DNA of 64,000 bases from a virus, in IMG/VR virus record IMGVR_UViG_3300020048_000003. One strand, given 5' to 3'. Of the stretch, positions 1,033 to 62,342 are shown in pieces. The notes under the pieces are model-generated. The model saw only the letters and a list, made by a program, of their open reading frames with translations, was not told where the DNA came from and did not search any database. The translations under genes and the position numbers were made by a program. The stretch's first letter is position 1; each line of letters starts with the position of its first letter.

Positions 1033-1358
1033 AACATATTAAACAATACGAAAATTATAAAGTTAGATACCTCAAAAAAGGAGAGAATATTGGTAATAAA
1101 TTCAATAGAGATGAGTATGTCACTTTGATAAATGATTATGTTAACGGTACTCCCGTAGAAAATATATCTAAACAAGTATTTCAAATAGCAGAAATTCAAA
1201 AACCTAATAAGAATAATATCATATTTAATTGTTTACTTAAATATCCAATAAGTGGTAAATTATATCAGTGGGTGAGAGAAGAAACATTACAATTAGCAAC
1301 AGAAGAACAAGTTGCTAATATAGAATTAGATTATGATGCAAATAAATATAATTTATGA
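1029..1358 (+). CDS. famA small protein
   Basis: MKHIKQYENY...ANKYNL; ATGA coupling both ends. Confidence 0.8.
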   Translation: MKHIKQYENYKVRYLKKGENIGNKFNRDEYVTLINDYVNGTPVENISKQVFQIAEIQKPNKNNIIFNCLLKYPISGKLYQWVREETLQLATEEQVANIELDYDANKYNL

Positions 1359-7989: not shown

Positions 7990-8261
7990 TGAAAATACAA
8001 AGGTTTAATGAGAGTTTAGAGAAAATTGAAAAAAAATACAATAGAACAAGGTATGTAGTTAAAAAAACTAGTGAAAAAGATGGTGATCACCTTAGTATGC
8101 CTTGTCTTACAATTGAAGACGCTGTCTCAGCATATAATAGGGTTTTTTCATATGATGATAATCCAAAAGAGTATGATGTTTACATAGTAGAAGAAAAATT
8201 CAGAATAGTGACGAAAGAAGAAATTGAACTATATTCTTCTACAAATAAATATAATCTATGA
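7989..8261 (+). CDS. famA small protein
   Basis: MKIQRFNES...STNKYNL. Confidence 0.75.
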   Translation: MKIQRFNESLEKIEKKYNRTRYVVKKTSEKDGDHLSMPCLTIEDAVSAYNRVFSYDDNPKEYDVYIVEEKFRIVTKEEIELYSSTNKYNL

Positions 8262-8728
8262 GAACTTACGAATCCTTTATATTTAAAAGAGATAGAAAAA
8301 AAAACTTAATTAAAATCCATCAATTTATTGATGAAGTTAAGAATTTTGTTGAAAAAATTATTGCTAAAAATGAAGATTGGATAGTAGATTTAAAAGATGC
8401 TGACGGTAAATTTGAAACATCAATGAGTGTTGCAACTATTTCAGTTGATGCTTATTATGCAAATCTTATTTTCATTATGATATACTATCATAATAAACAA
8501 GAGTATGTTAATTTTGATATACACAAACAATATAATGATACAGTACCAACACTAAAAAAACTCATAGATTTTTTTGAAGATATATTAAAAGGATATTTAC
8601 TTTTTGGTGATATGGGTGGTAATATTGCAAGATATAAAATAAAAATAGAAGATTTAGATGAAGTATTAAAAGAAATAACAGATGAAAATTTTGACTTTCA
8701 TTCTACAGCAATTGATTATAATCTTTAA
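8258..8728 (+). CDS. famA protein
   Basis: MRTYESF...TAIDYNL; 3' end overlaps convergent famB gene. Confidence 0.7.
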   Translation: MRTYESFIFKRDRKKNLIKIHQFIDEVKNFVEKIIAKNEDWIVDLKDADGKFETSMSVATISVDAYYANLIFIMIYYHNKQEYVNFDIHKQYNDTVPTLKKLIDFFEDILKGYLLFGDMGGNIARYKIKIEDLDEVLKEITDENFDFHSTAIDYNL

Positions 8729-16668: not shown

Positions 16669-17121
16669 ATGAAATATATTAAACAATACGAAACAAAAAT
16701 TACACAAAAATCCTTACTAGAAGTTATATCAAACTTTTTGAATAAAGCATTGCCTAATAATTTTTCTATTAAACTATACCAAGATACAATAAATATAAAA
16801 GATACAAATATTAAAACAAATAAAAATATAGGATTCATATACATATTAGGAACACAAAAAACAAAATTTAAAATACAATTGAGTTGCAGAACTTTAGAAG
16901 GTTCAAATATAAATATCGCAATGGAATATATAATAAATGAACTAAATAATAATATTCCAATAGATGAAGAAGGTAGAGAAGAAGATTCTAGTTGGTTATA
17001 TAACTTACATTATAATATCACTTTCAACCCAAAATACTTTGAAAATGTTATTACCTTATTTAATACATTACCAATAGAAGATTTATCCATTATAATGAGT
17101 GCTGAAAAATATAACCTATAA
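16669..17121 (+). CDS. famA protein
   Basis: MKYIKQYET...LSIIMSAEKYNL. Confidence 0.8.
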   Translation: MKYIKQYETKITQKSLLEVISNFLNKALPNNFSIKLYQDTINIKDTNIKTNKNIGFIYILGTQKTKFKIQLSCRTLEGSNINIAMEYIINELNNNIPIDEEGREEDSSWLYNLHYNITFNPKYFENVITLFNTLPIEDLSIIMSAEKYNL

Positions 17122-25712: not shown

Positions 25713-25868
25713 AAACATTAACAAAAAAATACCAAAATGTTCAGAAATACCACCTAAAATTTATTATATCTATCACAAAATTGTGTCAAAAAGTGGAGAA
25801 AAGTGGTAAAAAGTGGCGAAAAATGGAGGTAAAAAGATAACACTATAAGAATAAACACTTTAAGAAAA

Positions 25869-25901
25869 CCTGGATAACCGACGACTATCCAGGTATTTTT
25901 T
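25869..25901 (+). terminator. rho-independent terminator
   Basis: CCTGGATAaccgacgacTATCCAGG + TATTTTTTT. Confidence 0.65.
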
Positions 25902-26047
25902 TAGGATCCTAAAATAAGCCTCTGTATCACTCTCCAATACAGCATCCTATTCTCCTGACCCCGAGATACTTACAAAGTTCTTAATCTTTTGATAATGAAC
26001 AAGTTGCGACTGACAAAAAGTCACATGCCAAAGTATAAAAAAGGAGT

Positions 26048-26066
26048 AATTTAGAATTGTTCTAAA
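26048..26066. promoter_or_regulatory. perfect palindrome AATTTAGAA-TTG-TTCTAAATT (operator-like)
   Basis: 9-bp arms read directly; second copy 26228-26246. Confidence 0.5.
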
Positions 26067-26094
26067 TTGCTCAAATATTCAAACGGAGTTTGAA

Positions 26095-26116
26095 GTTCAG
26101 AACTTTGTTCTGAATA
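26095..26116. promoter_or_regulatory. palindrome AGTTCAGAAC-TTT-GTTCTGAAT (operator-like)
   Basis: 9 of 10 bp arms. Confidence 0.4.
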
Positions 26117-26150
26117 TTTTTTAGTTTGACTTTAAAGTATTATCTTTGTT

Positions 26151-26426
26151 ATGTGGGAGTGTGAGCCGATTTTTCCGGTTAATAAAGGTGAAATTACAAT
26201 TGTAAACTTGATAGGTTTACTAAAGCAATTTAGAATCGTTCTAAATAGTGGATGCCCAATTTTTTTATTCAACTTTTCTCCCTATCTTTGTATTCTAAAA
26301 ATAACAACTATGGGTTTCTTAGCATTCTTTCTTATTGTAATTGGAATAGTAAATGGTAAAACAGGATTAGTTTTGCTTGGATGTTTGGTATATCTATTAA
26401 GTTATAAAACAAAAAAATCAAAATGA
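26151..26426 (+). CDS. small hydrophobic peptide (real start probably internal Met at ~26311: MGFLAFFLIVIGIV...)
   Basis: track ORF; C-terminal 38 aa strongly hydrophobic; N-part overlaps palindromes. Confidence 0.35.
   Translation: MWECEPIFPVNKGEITIVNLIGLLKQFRIVLNSGCPIFLFNFSPYLCILKITTMGFLAFFLIVIGIVNGKTGLVLLGCLVYLLSYKTKKSK
26228..26246. promoter_or_regulatory. second copy of TTTAGAA-N3-TTCTAAA palindrome
   Basis: AATTTAGAA-TCG-TTCTAAAT. Confidence 0.5.
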
Positions 26427-26901: not shown

Positions 26902-27261
26902 ATGAAAGAATCAAAGAAATATGTAATAGCTTTTTTATTTGCTATGATTACTCTTGTACTCATGAGTGGATTAAATGAATGGACTCGTTGGGGTATAGAT
27001 TTATTAGTTGGGTGGTTTCCGATTACTGCTTGGTTCTCAACTATAAGAGTTATTAATATGAATAATGGTACTAAGTATGAACATACATCTTGGGGAACAG
27101 TAGGTTTTGCATTTGTAATAGCATTACTATTATCTTCTTTATGTTCTATTCTTCTTATGCCATTAGTAGTAAATGGATTCTTAACTGGTTTATTGTATAA
27201 CTTAATGACTAAGCCAGATGTGATAGAGGAAGAAATTGAAAAAAAAGATACAGATTTTTAA
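26902..27261 (+). CDS. membrane protein (3-4 TM)
   Basis: 119 aa hydrophobic. Confidence 0.5.
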   Translation: MKESKKYVIAFLFAMITLVLMSGLNEWTRWGIDLLVGWFPITAWFSTIRVINMNNGTKYEHTSWGTVGFAFVIALLLSSLCSILLMPLVVNGFLTGLLYNLMTKPDVIEEEIEKKDTDF

Positions 27262-27897
27262 AACTTTTGGTTTAAAATAACATATACTAATACACAAGTT
27301 AAGTTTTTAAGTTTAACAACAACATAAAGTAATTGCCGCAAGCTTTTGCTTAGTTGATAAAGACTTTAACTGAGGATTTGAATCCAGTTCATCCTGTTCT
27401 ACGGAACTTAAAGTTAATTGGCAGTCGGTTTACAAAGACTTATAAAACAGTTAATCGCGCCCTACTAAAATTTTGGGGCAGTTAGCACCTCCTAAATAGG
27501 TGACAGATGTTAAACATATGTTTACATACCGTTTAACACTCCGTTTTTCTTAGAAACTGTTACGTGAAATTTTCTAAGGTCTTTTCCCTTCAACTTGCAA
27601 GGGTAGTCTAAGTGGACGACGTGAGTCACGCTGAACTAACACAGGTTAAAGTTAGTGTTTATAGAGTTAAACTCTATAGTTTGGGAACCTTATATCCCTA
27701 CACTTGTTTACAATATTAGAATATTGTTAAGTTCTTGTAAACAATGTATCTGGCTCAAAGCCAGGTCAGTAACTACATTAATACAACAGTAATGTTCTGT
27801 TTATGTAAAGTGCTGATAGCATAGAAGAATCTACGGGTTCTATTATGTTAATAGAGAAGCCTCATTGAAGATAATTCTTTGAGGCTTCTTTTTTTAT
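27262..27897 (+). ncRNA. candidate structured ncRNA or long 3' UTR (unidentified class)
   Basis: ~600 nt with no ORF >=60 aa on either strand, higher G+C, internal palindromes (CGTGAgTCACG, GGATTtgAATCC), ends in strong terminator. Confidence 0.35.
27855..27897 (+). terminator. rho-independent terminator
   Basis: AGAAGCCTCA...TGAGGCTTCT + TTTTTTTATT. Confidence 0.7.
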
Positions 27898-27994
27898 TAA
27901 AACAATTAGCTTATATTTGAACAGTAGTTCAAACTTTCAAACTTTGTTTGAATATTTGTATAGATAATTAATAACAATATAATACAATAACATT

Positions 27995-28357
27995 ATGATA
28001 ATACTCTATATTCTTTTAGCGTTAGGCTTCATTACAATAGGTATACTTGCCTACCAATCTGATAAGCATCTCAAATGGTTCAACTCTCTACAGCCCGGTG
28101 ACCAGGTGTTGGTACGTATATACTCTAAGTACTGTGAGTGTGCTAGGGTAGCCACGGTAACGGTAGCAAGTGATGGTAAGTACATACAATGTACAATGAG
28201 TGAACAAGTGTCTAAGGATTGTAAAGACTGTGCAGCTATTAATGGTAGGGACAGTAAGGGTAACAATACTTGTTGGCACCATGTGACATACTATAAGCGT
28301 AAGGATATATCTAAGGTCACTGATAAGGCTAAGATATATACCACATTGGGTAAATAG
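27995..28357 (+). CDS. membrane-anchored Cys-rich protein (atypical G+C-richer codon usage)
   Basis: N-terminal TM then CEC...C..C..C...C; AAG/GTG-rich codons unlike neighbours. Confidence 0.5.
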   Translation: MIILYILLALGFITIGILAYQSDKHLKWFNSLQPGDQVLVRIYSKYCECARVATVTVASDGKYIQCTMSEQVSKDCKDCAAINGRDSKGNNTCWHHVTYYKRKDISKVTDKAKIYTTLGK

Positions 28358-28415
28358 TCTACACACTCTACACTATTCTACACTACCTTAATAGGAGGTG
28401 GTGTGATAGGTATGC

Positions 28416-28718
28416 TTAGCCGATTGAGTCTATGCGTACTATTATATTATTATATAGGGTAACAACAATACGATATTGATCGTATTCGTAAGGCTTAAGC
28501 TGTAGTTCGTTATCTTTATTGCCCACGAATATATAATAATGTCGTGGTAATATTGTGCGTCCTTGTTCAAGTAATTCGTCTGTACCGTTATCAAACAATA
28601 TAATATCGTTGGGGTTCATGCCGACTATATGACTAAAATCTTCTGGTGTCTTATTACTTGTCTGTACGTTACCGTATATCCCTTTCACCACCCTGGGTGG
28701 TATGTATATATTACCCAT
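28416..28718 (-). CDS. hypothetical protein (atypical codon usage)
   Basis: 100-aa ORF in G+C-richer island. Confidence 0.45.
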   Translation of the reverse strand: MGNIYIPPRVVKGIYGNVQTSNKTPEDFSHIVGMNPNDIILFDNGTDELLEQGRTILPRHYYIFVGNKDNELQLKPYEYDQYRIVVTLYNNIIVRIDSIG

Positions 28719-28916
28719 AGAATATCTCTCTTTTTTAACTATATATTATTAGGTGGAGGCTCTCTACAATTTTTCTGAATTTTAATAGGATTTTTTTTCT
28801 ACACAAGGTGACTAGGCTTAGTGCCTTGAGGCAACAAACTTTTCTACACTAGGCAAGGCGCTCGCCCTCCCCAATTTAGGAGGTAGACAACAATAACATA
28901 TTGTTATCATCTACCT

Positions 28917-28941
28917 ATGTCCATGTGTGTCACATGGACAT
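28917..28941. repeat. perfect inverted repeat ATGTCCATGTG-tgt-CACATGGACAT
   Basis: 11-bp arms, 3-nt spacer; followed by direct repeats ATGTAGAT x2. Confidence 0.6.
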
Positions 28942-29140
28942 ATGTAACATACTTGGATATGACTCCAAGGAGCATACGTATGTAGATATGTAGATATGTG
29001 TATATGGGGTCCATACAAAAATTGGCGCATATTTGAATGTTTTTCTCCCAGCACATTTTTAAAATAAAAGAAATTTTTATATGCCCTTTCCCCTATATAT
29101 AGCGTGGCCCCATATGTGGGTATAAACACTTCCCAATATT

Positions 29141-29290
29141 GATTTTGAAAATTTTTTTTTTGGGGAAAAATTTAGCAAAAATTCGCCAGGATTGATTTTC
29201 AAAAATTTTTTTTGGGGAAAATTTTTTATATAGATTTTCAAAAATTTTTTTGGGGAAAATTTTTGGATTTTTTTGGGAAAATTTTTTTAT
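29141..29290. repeat. ~4 tandem imperfect copies of ~35-nt unit GATTTTCAAAAATTTTTTTTGGGGAAAATTTTT (iteron-like)
   Basis: read directly; abuts tRNA-like element. Confidence 0.6.
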
Positions 29291-29296
29291 TCTTAT

Positions 29297-29388
29297 ATTG
29301 TGGTGTGGGATTCGAACCCACGCGCCAGTGATTAACTGACCTGTTTGTTTTCAAGACAAATCTCTTACAACCGCTTGAGTAATCTTCC
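29297..29388 (-). tRNA. tRNA-Ser(UGA)-like: D-arm, anticodon arm (CU-UGA-AA), long variable arm and T-arm (GGTTCGAATCC) intact, 3' acceptor strand does not pair (possible pseudo-tRNA or junction)
   Basis: revcomp GGAAGATTACTCAAGCGGTTGTAAGAGATTTGTCTTGAAAACAAACAGGTCAGTTAATCACTGGCGCGTGGGTTCGAATCCCAC then ACCACAAT instead of ATCTTCC-N-CCA. Confidence 0.5.
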
Positions 29389-29536: not shown

Positions 29537-30295
29537 TTATAATTGTGATGTATTAATAGGTAGATTAAATGAAAAAGTACTACCCTTCTTTATTTTACTA
29601 CTAATTTGTAGTGTTCCGCCATTTAATTTTATGAAACTTTTACACAACTTCAATCCCAATCCGCTTCCCTTTTCTGCATTTGTTCCAAACGTTGTATAAA
29701 ATTCGTTATCAGATAAAATTCTATCAATATTATCTTGACTAATACCAATTCCATTATCCGATATTTCAATTTTTATAAACTCATTGTCAGTTGTCATGTT
29801 AATACTAATCTTACCGTTTTTATTTGTAAATTTTATGGCATTAGATAATAAATTTCTAACTACAGATTCTATCATTATTTTATCAGCGTATGCTGTGAAT
29901 ACTCCAGAATAGTTTTTTTCTACTGTAATATTTTTCTCAATAAATCTATAATCTAAAATCATAAATTTTTTATCAATTATTTCGTTTAGATTAATTATGA
30001 CAGGATTATATGAAAGTGCATTTTTATTATGTGTTGCCCACTGTAATAGATTTTCTAACAACTCAAATGTACGTTTAGACAAGTCTTTTATAAAACCCAA
30101 GTATTGATATAATTCAGATTCAGTTACATCATCCTTTTCTGCAATTAATTCAGATATTTGCATTATACTACCTATCGGACCTCGTAAGTCATGCCCAATA
30201 ATGGCTAAAATAGTATCCTTTGTCTCATTTAATACACGAAACTGTTCAAGAGATTCTTCTAAATCGTTACATCGGCAACCCGATTTTCTTTCCAT
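29537..30295 (-). CDS. histidine kinase core (HisKA + HATPase_c), no sensor/TM domain
   Basis: H-box IIGHDLRGPIGSI; N-box LLSNAIKFT; G1 DNGIGIS; G2 GSGLGLKLCKSFI. Confidence 0.8.
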   Translation of the reverse strand: MERKSGCRCNDLEESLEQFRVLNETKDTILAIIGHDLRGPIGSIMQISELIAEKDDVTESELYQYLGFIKDLSKRTFELLENLLQWATHNKNALSYNPVIINLNEIIDKKFMILDYRFIEKNITVEKNYSGVFTAYADKIMIESVVRNLLSNAIKFTNKNGKISINMTTDNEFIKIEISDNGIGISQDNIDRILSDNEFYTTFGTNAEKGSGLGLKLCKSFIKLNGGTLQISSKIKKGSTFSFNLPINTSQL

Positions 30296-43798: not shown

Positions 43799-44299
43799 AT
43801 GAATCATATAAAATTATTTGAAAATTTCAACAAATACAATATAGATGATATGATTATTGTGACTAATAAAAAATTAGGTCTTGATAATAGGCTGGTTGTT
43901 ATAGATTCCATGTTGAAAAATAGAAATGGTGTTGAGTTTAAAGTTTGGAATGCATCAAAAGATTGTAAAGATGAAGAGTTTACAATATCAGAAAATGATA
44001 TAGTTAAAAAAATGCCATCTTATAAAAAAGGTGATTATATTTTATTAAAAGATTATTTTACTGGTAAACCAAAGCCAATGATAATGTCTGTACACATAGA
44101 ATGTGGTTTATTTGAAATGTGTGATTTAGAAGGATTTCTATTTCAGTACCAAAAGGAAAATAATGTAGAAGAGTTAGAATGGGTTGAAGAACCTTATTAC
44201 AATATAATTAGAAAGATGACTAAACGAGATTTAGAGAAATATAAATCCATAATAGAAGAATATCATCTAAAAAAAGATTCAAATAAATACAATTTATGA
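43799..44299 (+). CDS. famA protein (166 aa)
   Basis: MNHIKLFENF...KKGDYIL...KKDSNKYNL. Confidence 0.8.
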   Translation: MNHIKLFENFNKYNIDDMIIVTNKKLGLDNRLVVIDSMLKNRNGVEFKVWNASKDCKDEEFTISENDIVKKMPSYKKGDYILLKDYFTGKPKPMIMSVHIECGLFEMCDLEGFLFQYQKENNVEELEWVEEPYYNIIRKMTKRDLEKYKSIIEEYHLKKDSNKYNL

Positions 44300-45729: not shown

Positions 45730-46019
45730 AATATTTAAAAGAATATTATGCGACACAAAGGGGGAAATTAAGTAATTTTAATTGTGGTGATTGGGTCGTA
45801 CCTGCGTTCAGTACATTGAAATATGATGCTAACCGACCATATCAAATAGGTGGAGAATATGCTCCAGCTGTTGGACAAACAGAATGGCATTTCCGTTTAG
45901 AAAATACAGATTATGAAGATCATGGAACAGAATTTAAAGAATCACAATTAAGACGAGCAACATGGCAAGAAATAGAGGAAGAAAAATTAAGAAGAGATGC
46001 AAAAAAATACAATTTATGA
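45726..46019 (+). CDS. famA small protein
   Basis: MKYLKEYYA..CGDWVV...ATWQEIEEEKLRRDAKKYNL. Confidence 0.8.
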   Translation: MKYLKEYYATQRGKLSNFNCGDWVVPAFSTLKYDANRPYQIGGEYAPAVGQTEWHFRLENTDYEDHGTEFKESQLRRATWQEIEEEKLRRDAKKYNL

Positions 46020-46483
46020 GATATATTAAAGAGTTTGAAAAATTTAATTTTCTTGATAGGCTTTTATATAGTAAAGGTGCTAATAATCAAAAATTGGTTA
46101 AAGATAGAATTTTTGAGTTCGCAAAAGAAGTTTTTAAAAATTCTGACATAGAACCATTAGTTCCTATGAAAAATCCAAATAAAGGAAAAGGTAATTATCA
46201 CAGAATAGCATTCAATCATAAATCTGGTGGTGGTGCAGTTGGATTTATTGATATTAAAGAAGATGGAAAAAAATGGATTCAGGTATGGTGTAGTTTTATT
46301 GATGATTATCCAGAATTAACTAATTTTATGCAATATTTAAGAAATGATTTAGTAAAGAATAGTCATTTTTCAGCCACAACAATAGAGTATAGATTATATT
46401 TTGAAGATATAGAAAATTTTTTAAATGAGTTAACAATGGATAAATATGAACTTTATTGTGATATGAAAAATTATAATTTATAA
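46016..46483 (+). CDS. famA protein
   Basis: track ORF 45962 overlaps upstream; likely start MRYIKEFEKF...CDMKNYNL. Confidence 0.75.
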   Translation: MRYIKEFEKFNFLDRLLYSKGANNQKLVKDRIFEFAKEVFKNSDIEPLVPMKNPNKGKGNYHRIAFNHKSGGGAVGFIDIKEDGKKWIQVWCSFIDDYPELTNFMQYLRNDLVKNSHFSATTIEYRLYFEDIENFLNELTMDKYELYCDMKNYNL

Positions 46484-46761
46484 TGATAAAAAAATATAAT
46501 ATTTTCAAAAAAAAATTTAAGATTGGTGATTTAGTAAAACTAAAATCTGAAGGATATATTCCTGCTTATTGGGCATATTATAAAAATAGAGATAATATTG
46601 ATTTAAGTGTATTGGAAGTAGTATCGGTGGATTCAACAGATAAATTAGCATATGAAATTAAACCTATTAAACAGAATACTTTGGCGGAGTATTGGTTTGA
46701 AGAGTATATGTTGGAAAAATTATCTGATTATGAAATTGCAGCAATAAAATATAATTTATAA
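46483..46761 (+). CDS. famA small protein
   Basis: MIKKYNIF..KIGDLVK...LSDYEIAAIKYNL. Confidence 0.8.
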   Translation: MIKKYNIFKKKFKIGDLVKLKSEGYIPAYWAYYKNRDNIDLSVLEVVSVDSTDKLAYEIKPIKQNTLAEYWFEEYMLEKLSDYEIAAIKYNL

Positions 46762-47315
46762 TGAAGTATATTAAAGAATATTTTAATCCTATAAAGGATC
46801 ACAAAGAAAATAGATTACCAACAATAGGTGATTATGTGATATTTACTGATGATTTTTATGATGAAAAAATCAAAGATATTAGTTATGTTGGAAAGCATAG
46901 TTTAGATAATAAATTATATAGAAATGTAATTGGTGAAATTGTTGATTATTATCCTGGTTATCCAACAAAATATTTTGTATATTTTGATAAAAATGAATTT
47001 TGGCGTGAACAATATGTGGCTTCTATAGAAGATATTAAAAGTTATTCTAAAGTAAAAGAAGATTTAGAAAATCTACCAAATGTGGGAGATTATGTAATAT
47101 TAGGTAGTGATAATTATATTTATATTTGTAAAGTAATATCAAAAGAAAAATCAGATTTAAGGTGGACTAATTATAATTATACCGTTAAAAAGTTAAATCC
47201 AGGTCCGCATGATGGTAAAGGTGTAATTAATACGAATGATGATTCAATAAGATATTGGTCTAAAGATATAGGAGAATTAGAAACTATAATAGATGCAAAA
47301 AAATATAATTTATGA
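46761..47315 (+). CDS. famA protein with internal duplication (184 aa)
   Basis: MKYIKEYFN; two GDYVI segments (PTIGDYVIFTDD / PNVGDYVILGSD); ...ETIIDAKKYNL. Confidence 0.8.
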   Translation: MKYIKEYFNPIKDHKENRLPTIGDYVIFTDDFYDEKIKDISYVGKHSLDNKLYRNVIGEIVDYYPGYPTKYFVYFDKNEFWREQYVASIEDIKSYSKVKEDLENLPNVGDYVILGSDNYIYICKVISKEKSDLRWTNYNYTVKKLNPGPHDGKGVINTNDDSIRYWSKDIGELETIIDAKKYNL

Positions 47316-47962: not shown

Positions 47963-48370
47963 ATGAAATATATCAAATTATTTGAAGAAAAAGAATTAAT
48001 AAATGGTCCGGAGATTGGTGATTATGTGTTATTAGATAGGGAAGAATTATGGTATGATGATGGTAGTAATGAAGCTAGTCTTGATAATTATCTTTCTACT
48101 AATCTTGGTTTAGTTATAGGATTTGAAGATGGTTGGAATACGTCATTAGTTGATTATAAGAAGTCAAAACGTAATAATGATATGTTCTATGTATTGCAGT
48201 ATTCGGATTTACCAGATAAAGTAAAAGAGTATGCTTATCCTTATTTGGGTAGAACTATTGATGGTAGATATCAAGATAATATATTATCTGTTCCAAGAGA
48301 TATGATTAAGTTTTTTGGCTCAGATAAAGAGATAGAACTTCAAAAAGCAACAATTAAATATAATTTATGA
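47963..48370 (+). CDS. famA protein
   Basis: MKYIKLFEE..EIGDYVL...KATIKYNL. Confidence 0.8.
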   Translation: MKYIKLFEEKELINGPEIGDYVLLDREELWYDDGSNEASLDNYLSTNLGLVIGFEDGWNTSLVDYKKSKRNNDMFYVLQYSDLPDKVKEYAYPYLGRTIDGRYQDNILSVPRDMIKFFGSDKEIELQKATIKYNL

Positions 48371-48867
48371 AATACATTAAAAAGTTTGAAAATGATAGAT
48401 ATTATTCATCTGATTCTCAGAAATTAGAAGGTTATAACGGTAAGATTCTTATTAATATACCATCTACAACATATTTTAAGAGTGCAATTAGATTTCAAAT
48501 TGTTTTTGTTCATGAAGTATATAAACACAAACTTATATTTAAAGGGTCTGATAATGAAGATAGATATGAATATCAAGTTCTCGCAGATAATATTATTAGA
48601 TGTAATTCAGATGATTCTATTAATTTTACTTATAGATGGGATCAGGCTCATAATGAAGATGGATTTAAAAGATTAGAATTTATAACGGTTGAACAATTTT
48701 ATAATCAACATACGGATGTTTTTGTAGGATTATTAGAAGCAGCAATAGAAGAGAGTAATAATACTAAATTTTCAGAGCAACATAGATCTGAGGTAAAGAA
48801 GATAATAGATAAAATGACAATACCTGAAACTGAACATATTATTGGAGCAAATAAATACAATTTATGA
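48367..48867 (+). CDS. famA protein (166 aa)
   Basis: MKYIKKFEND...HIIGANKYNL. Confidence 0.8.
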   Translation: MKYIKKFENDRYYSSDSQKLEGYNGKILINIPSTTYFKSAIRFQIVFVHEVYKHKLIFKGSDNEDRYEYQVLADNIIRCNSDDSINFTYRWDQAHNEDGFKRLEFITVEQFYNQHTDVFVGLLEAAIEESNNTKFSEQHRSEVKKIIDKMTIPETEHIIGANKYNL

Positions 48868-49962: not shown

Positions 49963-50142
49963 ATGAAAAAATTTACAGAAACAGCAACATATATACAACC
50001 AGAAAAACAGTATAGAAAATATTTCAAATTTATTGAAGATAAATTTTTAAATATCCCTTTTGGTCGTTTAGTTTTTGATGAGATAAATGATTCTGTTGTT
50101 AAAATATATTTAAGGCGTGATATGAAAAAATACAATTTATAA
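49963..50142 (+). CDS. short famA member (59 aa, below track cutoff)
   Basis: manual: MKKFTETATYIQPEK...VKIYLRRDMKKYNL*; preceded by remnant ...GATKKYNI*. Confidence 0.55.
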   Translation: MKKFTETATYIQPEKQYRKYFKFIEDKFLNIPFGRLVFDEINDSVVKIYLRRDMKKYNL

Positions 50143-50675
50143 TGAAGTATATAAAAGAATTTGAAGTGAGTGGATATTTTGTTAATAAAACAAAGGATTT
50201 TATAGTTAGTGATTTTGTTAAACATACAACAAATTTTCAAGATACAAATATTTATAGAGTAAAAAGAGTTGGAAAAGGAACTAAACTTAAGAAGTATTAT
50301 ATTGAACTTTATCAAAATGGTGATGGTCAAGGTTTTTGGAGAAGTGGAAATTCGTTAGAATTGGCAGATCAGTCACCTGCATTGAAATATGAATCTGGTG
50401 ATTATGTGTTTGTTAATAATTATGATTGGGTAAATAAATATTATCGTAGTCCTTATTGTAAAATAAAATTTCTAAATTCTAAGAAGGTTATACGCGCTTG
50501 GGATTATATGGTCACTACATTTGAAACAAAACAAGTAAGTTCTGGTAATCCAGTTTCAAGCAAAGAAAGGGAGATTGATGCTTATTTAAATCAATATGAT
50601 ATAAAGAGAAAAATGACACAAGATGAGATTGATACATTTGATGCTCGTTGTATTGCAACAAAATACAATTTATAA
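50142..50675 (+). CDS. famA protein (177 aa)
   Basis: MKYIKEFEV...ESGDYVFV...ARCIATKYNL. Confidence 0.8.
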   Translation: MKYIKEFEVSGYFVNKTKDFIVSDFVKHTTNFQDTNIYRVKRVGKGTKLKKYYIELYQNGDGQGFWRSGNSLELADQSPALKYESGDYVFVNNYDWVNKYYRSPYCKIKFLNSKKVIRAWDYMVTTFETKQVSSGNPVSSKEREIDAYLNQYDIKRKMTQDEIDTFDARCIATKYNL

Positions 50676-61327: not shown

Positions 61328-61498
61328 ATGAAAATCACAAAAACTTTTACTATCTCAGAGGAAATTTTTAAAAAATTTGACGAAATTTCAAAGGTAGAAT
61401 CTATTAATAAATCTCTATTTATAGAAAATAGTATGAAAAATTTCCTAGATAAAAGAAAAAAAGAAGATGATAGGTATATACAAGATAAGAAACATTAA
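61328..61498 (+). CDS. ribbon-helix-helix-like small protein (56 aa, below track cutoff)
   Basis: manual: MKITKTFTISEEIFKKFDEISKVESINKSLFIENSMKNFLDKRKK... ; beta-strand + two helices pattern; 3' end overlaps endonuclease start. Confidence 0.45.
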   Translation: MKITKTFTISEEIFKKFDEISKVESINKSLFIENSMKNFLDKRKKEDDRYIQDKKH

Positions 61499-62342
61499 AA
61501 ATGATAAATATTATATTGGTTCATCAATAGATATACAAGATAGATGGTATCAACATAAAAATTCATTATCAAACAATAAACATCATTCTATAAAATTACA
61601 AAGATCCTATAATATTTATGGTGAAAATAATTTTATATACGATATTATTGAAGAATGTGATAAAAATTTATTAATTGCTCGTGAACAATATTATATTGAT
61701 ACTTACAATTCTTATAAAAATGGATATAATTCTACCAAATTTGCTGGCAGTAATCTAGGAATGAAACATAGTATTGAAACAAAAGAAATACTTAGGCAAA
61801 AAAGTTTGGGTAATCAAAATATGCTAAATAAAAAGCATACAGAAGAAACAAAGGAAAAAATAAAATTGAAATTAAAAGGTAGAATAGTATCAGAAATAAC
61901 TAAACAAAAAATGAAAATTTCTTCTCAAAATAGAAAAGAAATGAGTATTGAGACTAGAACAAAAATTAGCGTTTCTAAAAAAGGTAAAAAATTATCAGAT
62001 GAAAATAAAAATAAAATAAGTATGTCTCATTTAGGTAAAAAACAAAGCAATGAAACTATTACAAAAAGAGTTGAAAAAAATAAAGGACAAAAAAGAACAG
62101 AAGACATTAGGCAGAAAATGAGTGAAAATATGAGAGGAATTAAAAAGGGTCAAATGACAGAAGAAAATAAATTATTAAGATCAAAAAGAATTGCTCTTAT
62201 ATCTGATAATGATGATATCTTGAAAGAATTTAATGGTGTAAAAATATGTGCGACAGAACTAAATATTGATCGTAGAAGAATTGGTGAAATACTATCAGGA
62301 AAAAGAAAATCATTTAAAAATTTCAAATTCAAAATTATTTAA
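61467..62342 (+). CDS. GIY-YIG endonuclease with NUMOD3-type repeats (homing-endonuclease-like)
   Basis: IYKIRNIKNDKYYIGSS...RWYQHK...NIYGENNFIYDIIEEC...ARE.YYI; downstream repeats GMKHSIETKEIL / KKHTEETKEKI / GRIVSEITKQKM. Confidence 0.85.
   Translation: MIGIYKIRNIKNDKYYIGSSIDIQDRWYQHKNSLSNNKHHSIKLQRSYNIYGENNFIYDIIEECDKNLLIAREQYYIDTYNSYKNGYNSTKFAGSNLGMKHSIETKEILRQKSLGNQNMLNKKHTEETKEKIKLKLKGRIVSEITKQKMKISSQNRKEMSIETRTKISVSKKGKKLSDENKNKISMSHLGKKQSNETITKRVEKNKGQKRTEDIRQKMSENMRGIKKGQMTEENKLLRSKRIALISDNDDILKEFNGVKICATELNIDRRRIGEILSGKRKSFKNFKFKII

Follow-up and report, generated by a model that had tools for sequence, protein, structure and literature searches.

Positions 27255 to 27895 (+ strand) of the 64,000-nucleotide viral DNA analysed here, referred to below as the window, most probably form a gene, complete in itself, for a structured non-coding RNA about 0.6 kb long, from an undescribed family of a very AT-rich, jumbo-phage-like lineage. 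Judged on sequence comparison, this appears to be a new RNA family of a known general kind, and a rare one, with about 12 supporting sequences so far. Its resemblance to GOLLD and ROOL would be in kind only, that is, in size, genomic niche, multi-helix fold and conserved loops. A sequence-only reading of the window had proposed a candidate structured non-coding RNA at this place, and the proposal is now supported by covarying helices, same-strand terminators and the lack of a shared ORF across seven clades of homologous regions.

The window comes from a metagenomic contig that measures at least 209 kb, and a flanking protein is recorded on a 286-kb contig, while relatives of one gene of this genome are found on IMG/VR contigs of up to 235 kb. 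The genome has a G+C content of 26% and is crowded with genes of 60 to 130 aa having no Pfam family. Its genetic code is standard; stop-codon reassignment was considered as the cause of the short ORFs and rejected, as recoding yields no long ORFs. DNA similarity searches with the region itself (distant mode) and with the surrounding 20 kb (near mode) gave no match among 50,697 phage records, and neither did a tblastn search of the same records with a conserved 100-aa protein encoded just downstream. Based on contig size, composition, the tiny Pfam-less genes, the standard code, the absence of matches among these phage records and the size of the related contigs, we treat the genome as that of an uncultured jumbo phage. 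The gene for the 100-aa protein (28416-28718, − strand) is convergent with the RNA and belongs to a family of 118 clusters. This protein has no Pfam family; its AlphaFold model is of moderate quality (pLDDT 72.7), and its best fold match in the PDB is not significant (E = 0.08). The only tRNA-like feature near the RNA in the window is a truncated sequence at 29301-29388.

The RNA lies in a gap bounded by the stop codon of a 119-aa gene for a small membrane protein (26902-27261, +) and the start of a gene for a Cys-rich protein of 120 aa (27995-28357, +). This gap (27262-27994, 733 nt) holds no ORF of at least 60 aa on either strand and is the longest of its kind in the window, where only one other ORF-free gap of at least 300 nt is present (25713-26150). 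The region had been described as ORF-free and richer in G+C, and both statements hold: between 27262 and 27897 the longest ORFs are of 43 aa (TTG start) and 45 aa (GTG start), and the G+C content is 33.5%, against a window mean of 26.1%. The zone of elevated G+C nevertheless extends to about 29100 across coding genes, so that composition alone does not delimit the element. At a distance of about 1.5 kb from the region, gene orientation and G+C skew switch, and short direct repeats are found nearby.

Scans of IMG/VR, of JGI metagenome contigs and of GTDB genome contigs with four exact patterns taken from conserved blocks returned no match, and the search for homologues was therefore routed through the neighbouring genes in metagenomic contigs. 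The two flanking proteins, for which no relatives were found in IMG/VR, led to contigs L006, L007, L008 and L009, and the family of the 100-aa protein led to L010-L038. The ORF-free homologous regions recovered in this way form seven diverged clades, with about 12 distinct sequences. Clade A contains the window, L007 and L006, the latter being 86% identical to the window; clade B contains L008, L009 and a partial L012; clade C, L028-L031; clade D, L027; clade E, L024 and L025; clade F, L036-L038 and L011; and clade G, L034 and L035, which are cut short where the contig stops. When a profile was made with clades A and B only, it matched C and D, and pairwise nhmmer comparisons connect E with D, F with E and D, G with A, C and E, and C with B. 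These inter-clade links appear weak but collinear, and the membership of clade E, which shares fewer motifs than the others, is only probable. Position and orientation of the region are kept across the seven clades. The RNA, of which the window has one copy, measures about 0.6 kb there and 0.45 to 0.7 kb in the other lineages. Across clades, a full-length MAFFT alignment was poor, and RNAalifold gave a covariation term of only -0.14 on it.

Both ends of the putative transcript are marked by features common to most or all clades. At the 5′ end, a conserved, promoter-like block (27255-27291, +) consists of a T-run, AAAACTTTTGG (27260-27270), an A-run and the TATA-like ACATATAC (27280-27287). Its consensus, AAAC(C)TTT, about 19 nt, then ACTATAWAT, is found at a constant spacing upstream of the RNA in clades A to F. 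In clade A it overlaps the last codons or stop of the upstream ORF, which is the 119-aa gene in the window, and in clade B it lies entirely outside the upstream ORF. We infer from this conservation that the block AAACYTTT...ACTATAWAT may be a promoter at which transcription starts. It does not recur as a motif within the window, and its use as a general promoter of this genome was not supported. Similar AAACTTTT...TATATA strings were seen ahead of ORFs in some of the related contigs.

At the 3′ end stands an intrinsic terminator (27855-27895, +), made of a 10-bp stem, AGAAGCCTCA/TGAGGCTTCT (27855-27889), followed by T7 (27889-27895), with a predicted energy of -19.4 kcal/mol. The strong terminator announced by the sequence-only reading is thus present, with a T-run of 7 rather than the 9 reported. 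A simple terminator scan had missed it because its loop exceeds 8 nt. With its G+C-rich stem and U-run it matches a Rho-independent terminator, which accounts for the last 40 nt only. Every clade has its own terminator hairpin on the same strand, differing in sequence, with a U-run and energies of -10.8 to -21.2 kcal/mol. In clades B and C it faces the 3′ end of the convergent 100-aa gene, and a cis-regulatory leader or riboswitch was excluded on this ground. An intron or leader reading was likewise a misfit: the terminator and an AT-rich spacer stand between the region and the following gene, whose start codon is its own, and in clades B and C no co-directional gene follows at all.

Folding of the whole region was compared with that of dinucleotide shuffles, and gave z-scores of -6.3 for the + strand and -5.1 for the − strand. 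In windows of 160 nt, the excess structure was concentrated at 27600-28000, with none in the 5′ half. Despite their divergence in sequence, the clades share one order of elements: the upstream block, a 5′ hairpin with UUAACA, P2, P3 with CAGUC, variable hairpins, P-w with CCGUU, P-x (CGUGAAA), two to five middle hairpins, P-y (UGUUAAG), a variable expansion site, P-z (YNMG) and the terminator. The loops CGUGAAA and UGUUAAG and the junctions CAGUC and CCGUU are constant or nearly so.

In the 5′ part, hairpin H1 (27296-27319, +) runs from AAGTTAAG to TTTAAC and carries the conserved TTAACAA (27313-27319); TTAACA is kept in clades A to E and is replaced by CTTAAT in clade F. P2 (27320-27356, +) has an outer CAAC/GTTG pairing around an AAGC-TTTT-GCTT hairpin (27340-27351). 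Clades A and B both appear to form a hairpin here, the sequences being unrelated (AAGC/GCTT in the window, GTAAC/GTTAC in L006 and TATCC/GGATA in clade B). P2 contains one of three short palindromes that had been quoted as perfect. Two of them are so, namely CGTGAgTCACG (27620-27630) and GGATTtgAATCC (27374-27385), but the third, GCAAGCttttGCTTAG, is imperfect, its pairing being limited to the 4 bp of AAGC/GCTT in P2. P3 (27384-27426, +) pairs CCAGTT (27384-27389) with AATTGG (27416-27421), encloses a GTTC-TACG-GAAC tetraloop hairpin (27396-27407) and is followed by CAGTC (27422-27426). Its stem is distinct in all six clades having it: CCAGUU/AAUUGG, UCGG/CCGA, GUUACU/AGUAAC, UCCAA/UUGGA, GGAU/AUCC and CUGUU/AACAG.

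Further downstream, the P-w hairpin (27507-27533, +) is formed by ATGT...ACAT and continues into the conserved junction ACCGTT. Its stem covaries across clades (AUGU/ACAU, GUGUGA/UCACAU, GACAAU/AUUGUC, GAC/GUC) and always adjoins CCG, and its loops include GUAA, UUCG and GAAA tetraloops. P-x (27549-27578, +) pairs CTTAGAAA with TTTCTAAG around a 14-nt loop with CGTGAAA (27563-27569). This loop is near-invariant, with variants in two of the seven clades, while the stem has seven sequences in seven clades, each fully paired. The middle hairpins (27586-27698, +) were predicted by single-sequence folding and are the least resolved part of the RNA. They comprise CCCTT/AAGGG (27586-27603), GTGGAC...GTCAC with CGTGAgTCACG (27612-27630), ACGCTGA/TTAGTGT (27628-27658), a 9-bp palindrome TATAGAGTT/AACTCTATA (27660-27678) and GGGA/TCCC (27683-27698). 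A G-U to G-C change in L006 supports the ACGCUGA/UUAGYGU helix, and the other clades also have hairpins in this part, varying in number and sequence.

P-y (27704-27744, +) has an outer stem TTGTTTACAA (27704-27713)/TTGTAAACAA (27735-27744), an inner stem AGAA/TTCT and a loop TTGTTAA (27724-27730); the same arms are returned by an inverted-repeat search. The loop UGUUAA(G/A) is kept in clades A to E and G and becomes AUUAAG in clade F. Between P-y and P-z, the window has a lineage-specific insertion of about 70 nt (27748-27818, +), made of a hairpin CTGGCTCAAAGCCAG (27750-27764) and a long imperfect hairpin (27765-27817). It is present in L007 and absent from the close relative L006. Hairpins resembling CTGGC-N3-5-GCCAG are found at other places in L007, L008 and L009, and once in the window. 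L007 has a different insertion within P-w, consisting of CTGGCGAAAGCCAG and TCAGAACTTTGTTCTGA; copies of such small hairpins are also seen in L008 (outside the RNA), in L009 (near the 5′ end) and, in the window, at 26097-26113. Peripheral positions therefore seem to tolerate added hairpins, as in other large RNAs. Finally, P-z (27820-27847, +; core 27826-27841) carries a C(UACG)G tetraloop directly 5′ of the terminator. A tetraloop of the YNMG type (UACG or CACG) caps P-z in five clades (A, B, C, D and G), on stems that differ.

A covariation analysis with homologous regions, which had been suggested together with the original proposal, was carried out. For six helices (P3, P-w, P-x, outer P-y, inner P-y and P-z), each strand was paired either with its own partner or with the partner from another clade. 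Pairing was 100% with the own partner, against 37 to 48% with the foreign one (37% for P3, 40 to 42% for the two P-y stems). The registers had been picked visually and with a search for the best stem, a procedure biased towards pairing. For this reason, more neutral tests were added, namely flank shuffles and a covariance model for P-x and a plain MAFFT alignment for P-z. When the sequences flanking the P-x loop were shuffled, per-clade p values ranged from 0.001 to 0.19, or about 2×10−4 once combined by Fisher's method (our own arithmetic). Column counting on a MAFFT alignment of P-x was shifted in register by the differing loop lengths, and a covariance model was used instead. This model, R1, for which only clades B, D and G were used, found two clades outside this set, F (E = 0.0013) and C (E = 0.0018). 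In clade A it found L006 weakly (E = 4.9), and the P-x copy of the window, which has a longer loop, was not reported at E ≤ 10. On the R1 alignment, which is fitted to the model and includes two extra weak matches, six of six P-x pairs were changed on both sides and 94% of cells were paired. The covariation score was 0.917, compared to 0.286 in shuffles, none of 500 reaching the observed value, and it did not exceed 0.24 with slid partners. For P-z, in the plain MAFFT alignment of clades A and B (A7), 94% of cells were paired, against 28 to 51% with slid partners; two pairs had double changes, and 2 of 500 shuffles reached the covariation score. Compensatory base-pair changes, the mark of a structured non-coding RNA, are present in P-x and P-z, in a small number of sequences; with about 12 distinct sequences, the number of independent changes behind most helices is low.

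Several observations place the element on the + strand. The two CTACGG sites of the region are on that strand, and the five found elsewhere in the window on the − strand; G-U pairs occur in the helices, and these would be A-C on the opposite strand; the + strand folds better than the − strand by 18 kcal/mol; and the terminators are all on the same strand.

A long-range contact may be added to these local helices. The P-y loop is complementary to a 5′ site after H1, about 400 nt upstream, with 7 to 8 Watson-Crick bp in every clade, except that in clade E the 8-bp match lies elsewhere, the homologous UUAACA site forming no more than 6 bp. In this candidate helix clade F has an A-U pair where the other clades have G-C, and clade D extends it by a G-C pair; most positions are invariant. 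Covariation was not significant (80% of cells paired versus 75% in shuffles, with 157 of 500 shuffles reaching the score), and a local 5′ hairpin competes for the same bases. The pseudoknot between UUAACA and the P-y loop is accordingly a plausible hypothesis only, proposed on complementarity and without statistical support. Self-complementary cores are also present within the P-x loop: ACGU/CACGUG for clades A and B, GAUC for clades C, D, F and G. These would suit loop-loop dimerisation, but we give this little weight, 4-nt palindromes being common by chance.

Next, the region was compared with known RNA families. The sequence-only reading had failed to recognise tmRNA, RNase P, SRP or 6S RNA, and had suggested an Rfam scan. 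Run with Rfam 15, the scan reported no family at gathering thresholds in the region. At relaxed thresholds (E ≤ 10 for 27100-28100, E ≤ 1 for six homologues from different clades), only scattered matches were obtained, mostly to the terminator hairpin, and no family recurred. Models for RNase P, SRP, 6S and group I and II introns had no match at these same thresholds, ROOL had none in the region or the six homologues at any threshold used, and ARAGORN detected neither tRNA nor tmRNA in the whole window. A few resemblances seen by eye, to the hammerhead (CUGANGA), to RNase P CR-I, to group I R/S elements and to a T-arm in GGATTTGAATCC, were dropped, since the homologues do not retain these motifs and Rfam reports nothing. 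A search of the literature found no description of such an RNA.

The comparison with GOLLD (RF02032) was more informative. Its model, which covers the conserved 3′ domain and has a gathering threshold of 150 bits, had no match in the window at that threshold, none at E ≤ 10 in 27100-28100 and none at E ≤ 1 in the six homologues, whereas in the same Rfam run it scored 262 to 290 bits on true GOLLD genes in the related contigs L010, L032 and L024. Reciprocally, the profile of the new family had no match on these GOLLD regions. In L010 and L032, GOLLD fills the slot beside the 100-aa gene, convergent with it. In L024, the order is GOLLD, tRNA-Leu, the new RNA and, further downstream, tRNA-Met; a tRNA-Met gene is also found downstream of the new RNA in L036, L011 and L038. 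Since GOLLD and the new RNA are both present in L024, parted by a tRNA gene, they are separate genes within a single neighbourhood of RNA genes. Like GOLLD, the new RNA is large, multi-helix and phage-borne, has its own terminator and occupies the same slot in relatives. Its closeness to tRNA genes is established through these relatives, the window itself having the truncated tRNA-like sequence only. It differs from GOLLD by the absence of any sequence or covariance-model similarity, by its length (about 0.45 to 0.7 kb, against more than 0.8 kb) and by its conserved motifs.

ROOL, which we take to be Rfam entry RF03087, is closer in size, with a length of about 580 nt. It occurs in phages and prophages near tRNA islands and has pseudoknots and conserved kissing loops, with no known protein partner or function (PMC12286853). 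GOLLD and ROOL are both described as phage RNAs near tRNA islands, of unknown function, that form RNA-only nanocages held by kissing loops and A-minor contacts (PMC12286853). The new RNA differs from ROOL in hosts and phage lineage, and its one candidate pseudoknot lacks statistical support. Another point of comparison is offered by the stable RNAs of the phage T4 tRNA region (species 1 and 2, rnaC/rnaD), which are non-coding, of unknown function and located beside phage tRNA genes. These RNAs are about 100 to 140 nt long and are processed from a tRNA precursor transcript. The new RNA is likewise a phage non-coding RNA near tRNA genes, but it is four to five times longer and has its own terminator.

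Several other explanations of the region were weighed. That it is a decayed protein gene, or the source of one or more very small proteins, might be suspected from the 43- and 45-aa ORFs and from the crowd of tiny genes around it. As expected of a non-coding RNA, however, no reading frame is conserved. Six-frame translations of all members showed no cross-clade similarity beyond a few short matches of 8 to 34 aa, at chance level (best E about 0.001, the database being tiny); on the RNA strand, the longest ORFs with an ATG start measure 11 to 37 aa, at positions that are not conserved; indels between close relatives are not multiples of three; and gene callers called nothing in the region on any contig examined. 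Seven clades without a common ORF or peptide similarity, but with compensatory pairing, rule out the degraded protein gene that the sequence-only reading had named as its own refutation, and we regard any coding explanation as having a negligible chance of being correct. It is also very improbable that the RNA is a highly diverged member of a described large family (GOLLD, ROOL, RNase P, tmRNA, or a group I or II intron) left unscored by Rfam. Distant members can indeed escape the Rfam models of large RNAs, and size, phage setting and closeness to tRNA and GOLLD genes would fit GOLLD and ROOL. But no family was retained at gathering thresholds or recurred at E ≤ 1 to 10, in the window and six homologues; the GOLLD model recognises true GOLLD readily, once on the very contig that carries the new RNA; ARAGORN finds no tmRNA; and the profile of the new family misses the GOLLD regions.

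An explanation that keeps the structure and denies the independent gene is that of a long structured 3′ UTR, or cis element, of the upstream small membrane-protein gene, serving mRNA stability, localisation or termination. The region is on the same strand as the 119-aa gene and begins at its stop codon, a related small membrane protein (GWF..AWF motif) lies directly upstream in clades A, B and C, and the promoter is only a conserved block overlapping the 3′ end of the upstream ORF, so that read-through is possible. Nevertheless, the upstream neighbour is unrelated in D (lipoprotein-like), in F and in E (a tRNA-Leu gene), yet the RNA and the block are kept, and within clade A the upstream gene has been replaced (119 versus 71 aa) while the RNA is still 86% identical. 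Moreover, it would be uncommon for a 3′ UTR to measure 0.6 kb and to have covarying helices and conserved loops, and we consider this explanation unlikely. Less likely still is an element acting at the DNA level (a replication origin, for example, or a packaging site or a cluster of protein-binding palindromes), whose hairpins would function as duplex or cruciform DNA. Such an element would agree with the strongly negative fold z-scores on both strands, with the perfect palindromes among the hairpins, with the proximity of the orientation and skew switch and of the direct repeats, and with a clade B palindrome, GGTTTCACGTGAAACC, which holds the P-x heptamer just outside the RNA. Against it, the conserved features are strand-specific (YNMG tetraloops, G-U pairs, U-run terminators on one strand), there are no iterons within the region, and stem sequences are replaced while pairing stays, which protein-binding sites would not allow.

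With an independent RNA gene as the preferred explanation, a working scheme can be proposed. Transcription would initiate at the conserved upstream block, so that the RNA would be independently transcribed, and the product would fold as a trans-acting scaffold. The molecule may be closed by pairing between the UGUUAAG loop and the 5′ UUAACA site. The conserved loops would be contact surfaces, the exposed CGUGAAA loop possibly docking a partner, be it a second molecule of the same RNA, a tRNA or ribosomal component, or a protein, and peripheral positions would accept inserted hairpins. By analogy, the most likely role would be the same as that of GOLLD and ROOL, an infection-stage, RNA-centred assembly; we propose it because related contigs hold tRNA and GOLLD genes in the same neighbourhood. 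A bolder and distinctly less probable idea, which we put forward as speculation, is that the RNA represents a third large 'ornate' phage class, structurally unrelated to GOLLD and ROOL, and functions as an RNA-only machine, either a homo-oligomer held by its conserved loops or a new ribozyme whose targets would be RNAs of the phage or the host encoded in the vicinity.

Few bacterial or phage RNAs both exceed about 400 nt in length and have a conserved, intricate fold. To our knowledge, the large RNAs understood so far are ribozymes or, as in the case of GOLLD, ROOL and OLE, unprecedented RNA-only assemblies. Were the region only a UTR or a DNA site, its interest would be merely local. As a gene for a new RNA family beside tRNA and GOLLD genes, it would give a second, independent handle on the 'RNA islands' of phages during infection, and the size of the RNA suits chemical probing and cryo-EM. 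It would also indicate that real genes are present in the 'hypothetical, ORF-free' gaps of uncultured jumbo phages.

The new RNA, a candidate structured RNA gene of about 0.6 kb, lies in a G+C-rich island of the window (27300-29100; 34-41% G+C against a mean of 26%), together with the gene for a 120-aa, cysteine-rich, membrane-anchored protein and the convergent 100-aa gene (28416-28718, minus strand). A homologue of the 120-aa protein is likewise found downstream of the new RNA in L024, one of the related metagenomic contigs reached via neighbouring genes. The 100-aa protein has an invariant core, NDIILFD(D/N)GTDELLEQGRTILPR, and its family comprises 118 clusters in metagenomes. No Pfam family was matched by this protein, and a search of PDB folds gave no significant match; its AlphaFold model has a pLDDT of 72.7.

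The 100-aa gene recurrently adjoins tRNA genes, the new RNA, or GOLLD RNA (RF02032). GOLLD genes adjoining members of this family were found in related phage contigs, all on the minus strand and with scores of 262-290 bits: L010 (3040-3457), L032 (1815-2221) and L024 (3339-3745). On the last of these contigs, GOLLD is accompanied by two tRNA genes as well as by the new RNA. GOLLD was not found anywhere in the 64-kb window.

A tRNA-Ser(UGA)-like sequence is present in the window at 29301-29388 (minus strand; Rfam tRNA, 36 bits). Its D, anticodon, long variable and T arms are present, the acceptor stem lacks its 3′ strand, and no tRNA was called there by ARAGORN. It could be a pseudo-tRNA, or the relic of an integration or recombination event. 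The ORF-poor segment separating it from the 100-aa gene contains about four direct copies of GATTTTCAAAAATTTTTTTTGGGGAAAAT (29130-29295), which could be iterons or promoters. The stretch at 28801-29040 is also non-coding and strongly structured, with a fold z-score of -6.6 on the minus strand; long hairpins surround GTCCATGTGTGTCACATGGAC in it.

Few ORFs of the window have recognisable domains; among these are a soluble histidine kinase (29537-30295, minus strand; HisKA and HATPase_c) and a GIY-YIG/NUMOD homing endonuclease (61467-62342, plus strand). A family of paralogues that start with MKYIK(E/Q)FE and end with KYNL or YNL accounts for many of the window's larger ORFs (for instance 8258-8728, 16669-17121, 43799-44299, 45962-46483, 46761-47315, 48367-48867 and 50142-50675), and a Pfam family was found for none of them.

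A second ORF-free gap (25713-26150) coincides with a switch in gene orientation and in G+C skew. It contains four copies of AAAAGTGG (25780-25830) and several strong hairpins, with a lowest z-score of -8.9 at 26001-26160. One hairpin, TCAGAACTTTGTTCTGA (26097-26113), recurs in L007, as an insertion within its RNA, and in L008, downstream of its RNA.

In clade B, a perfect palindrome, GGTTTCACGTGAAACC, is placed a short way 3′ of the terminator of the new RNA (L009, 3202-3240, plus strand; L012, about 1130-1150, minus strand). None of this type was found in the window. The palindrome has the heptamer CGTGAAA in common with the near-invariant loop of P-x, a hairpin of the new RNA, which may hint at one protein binding both.
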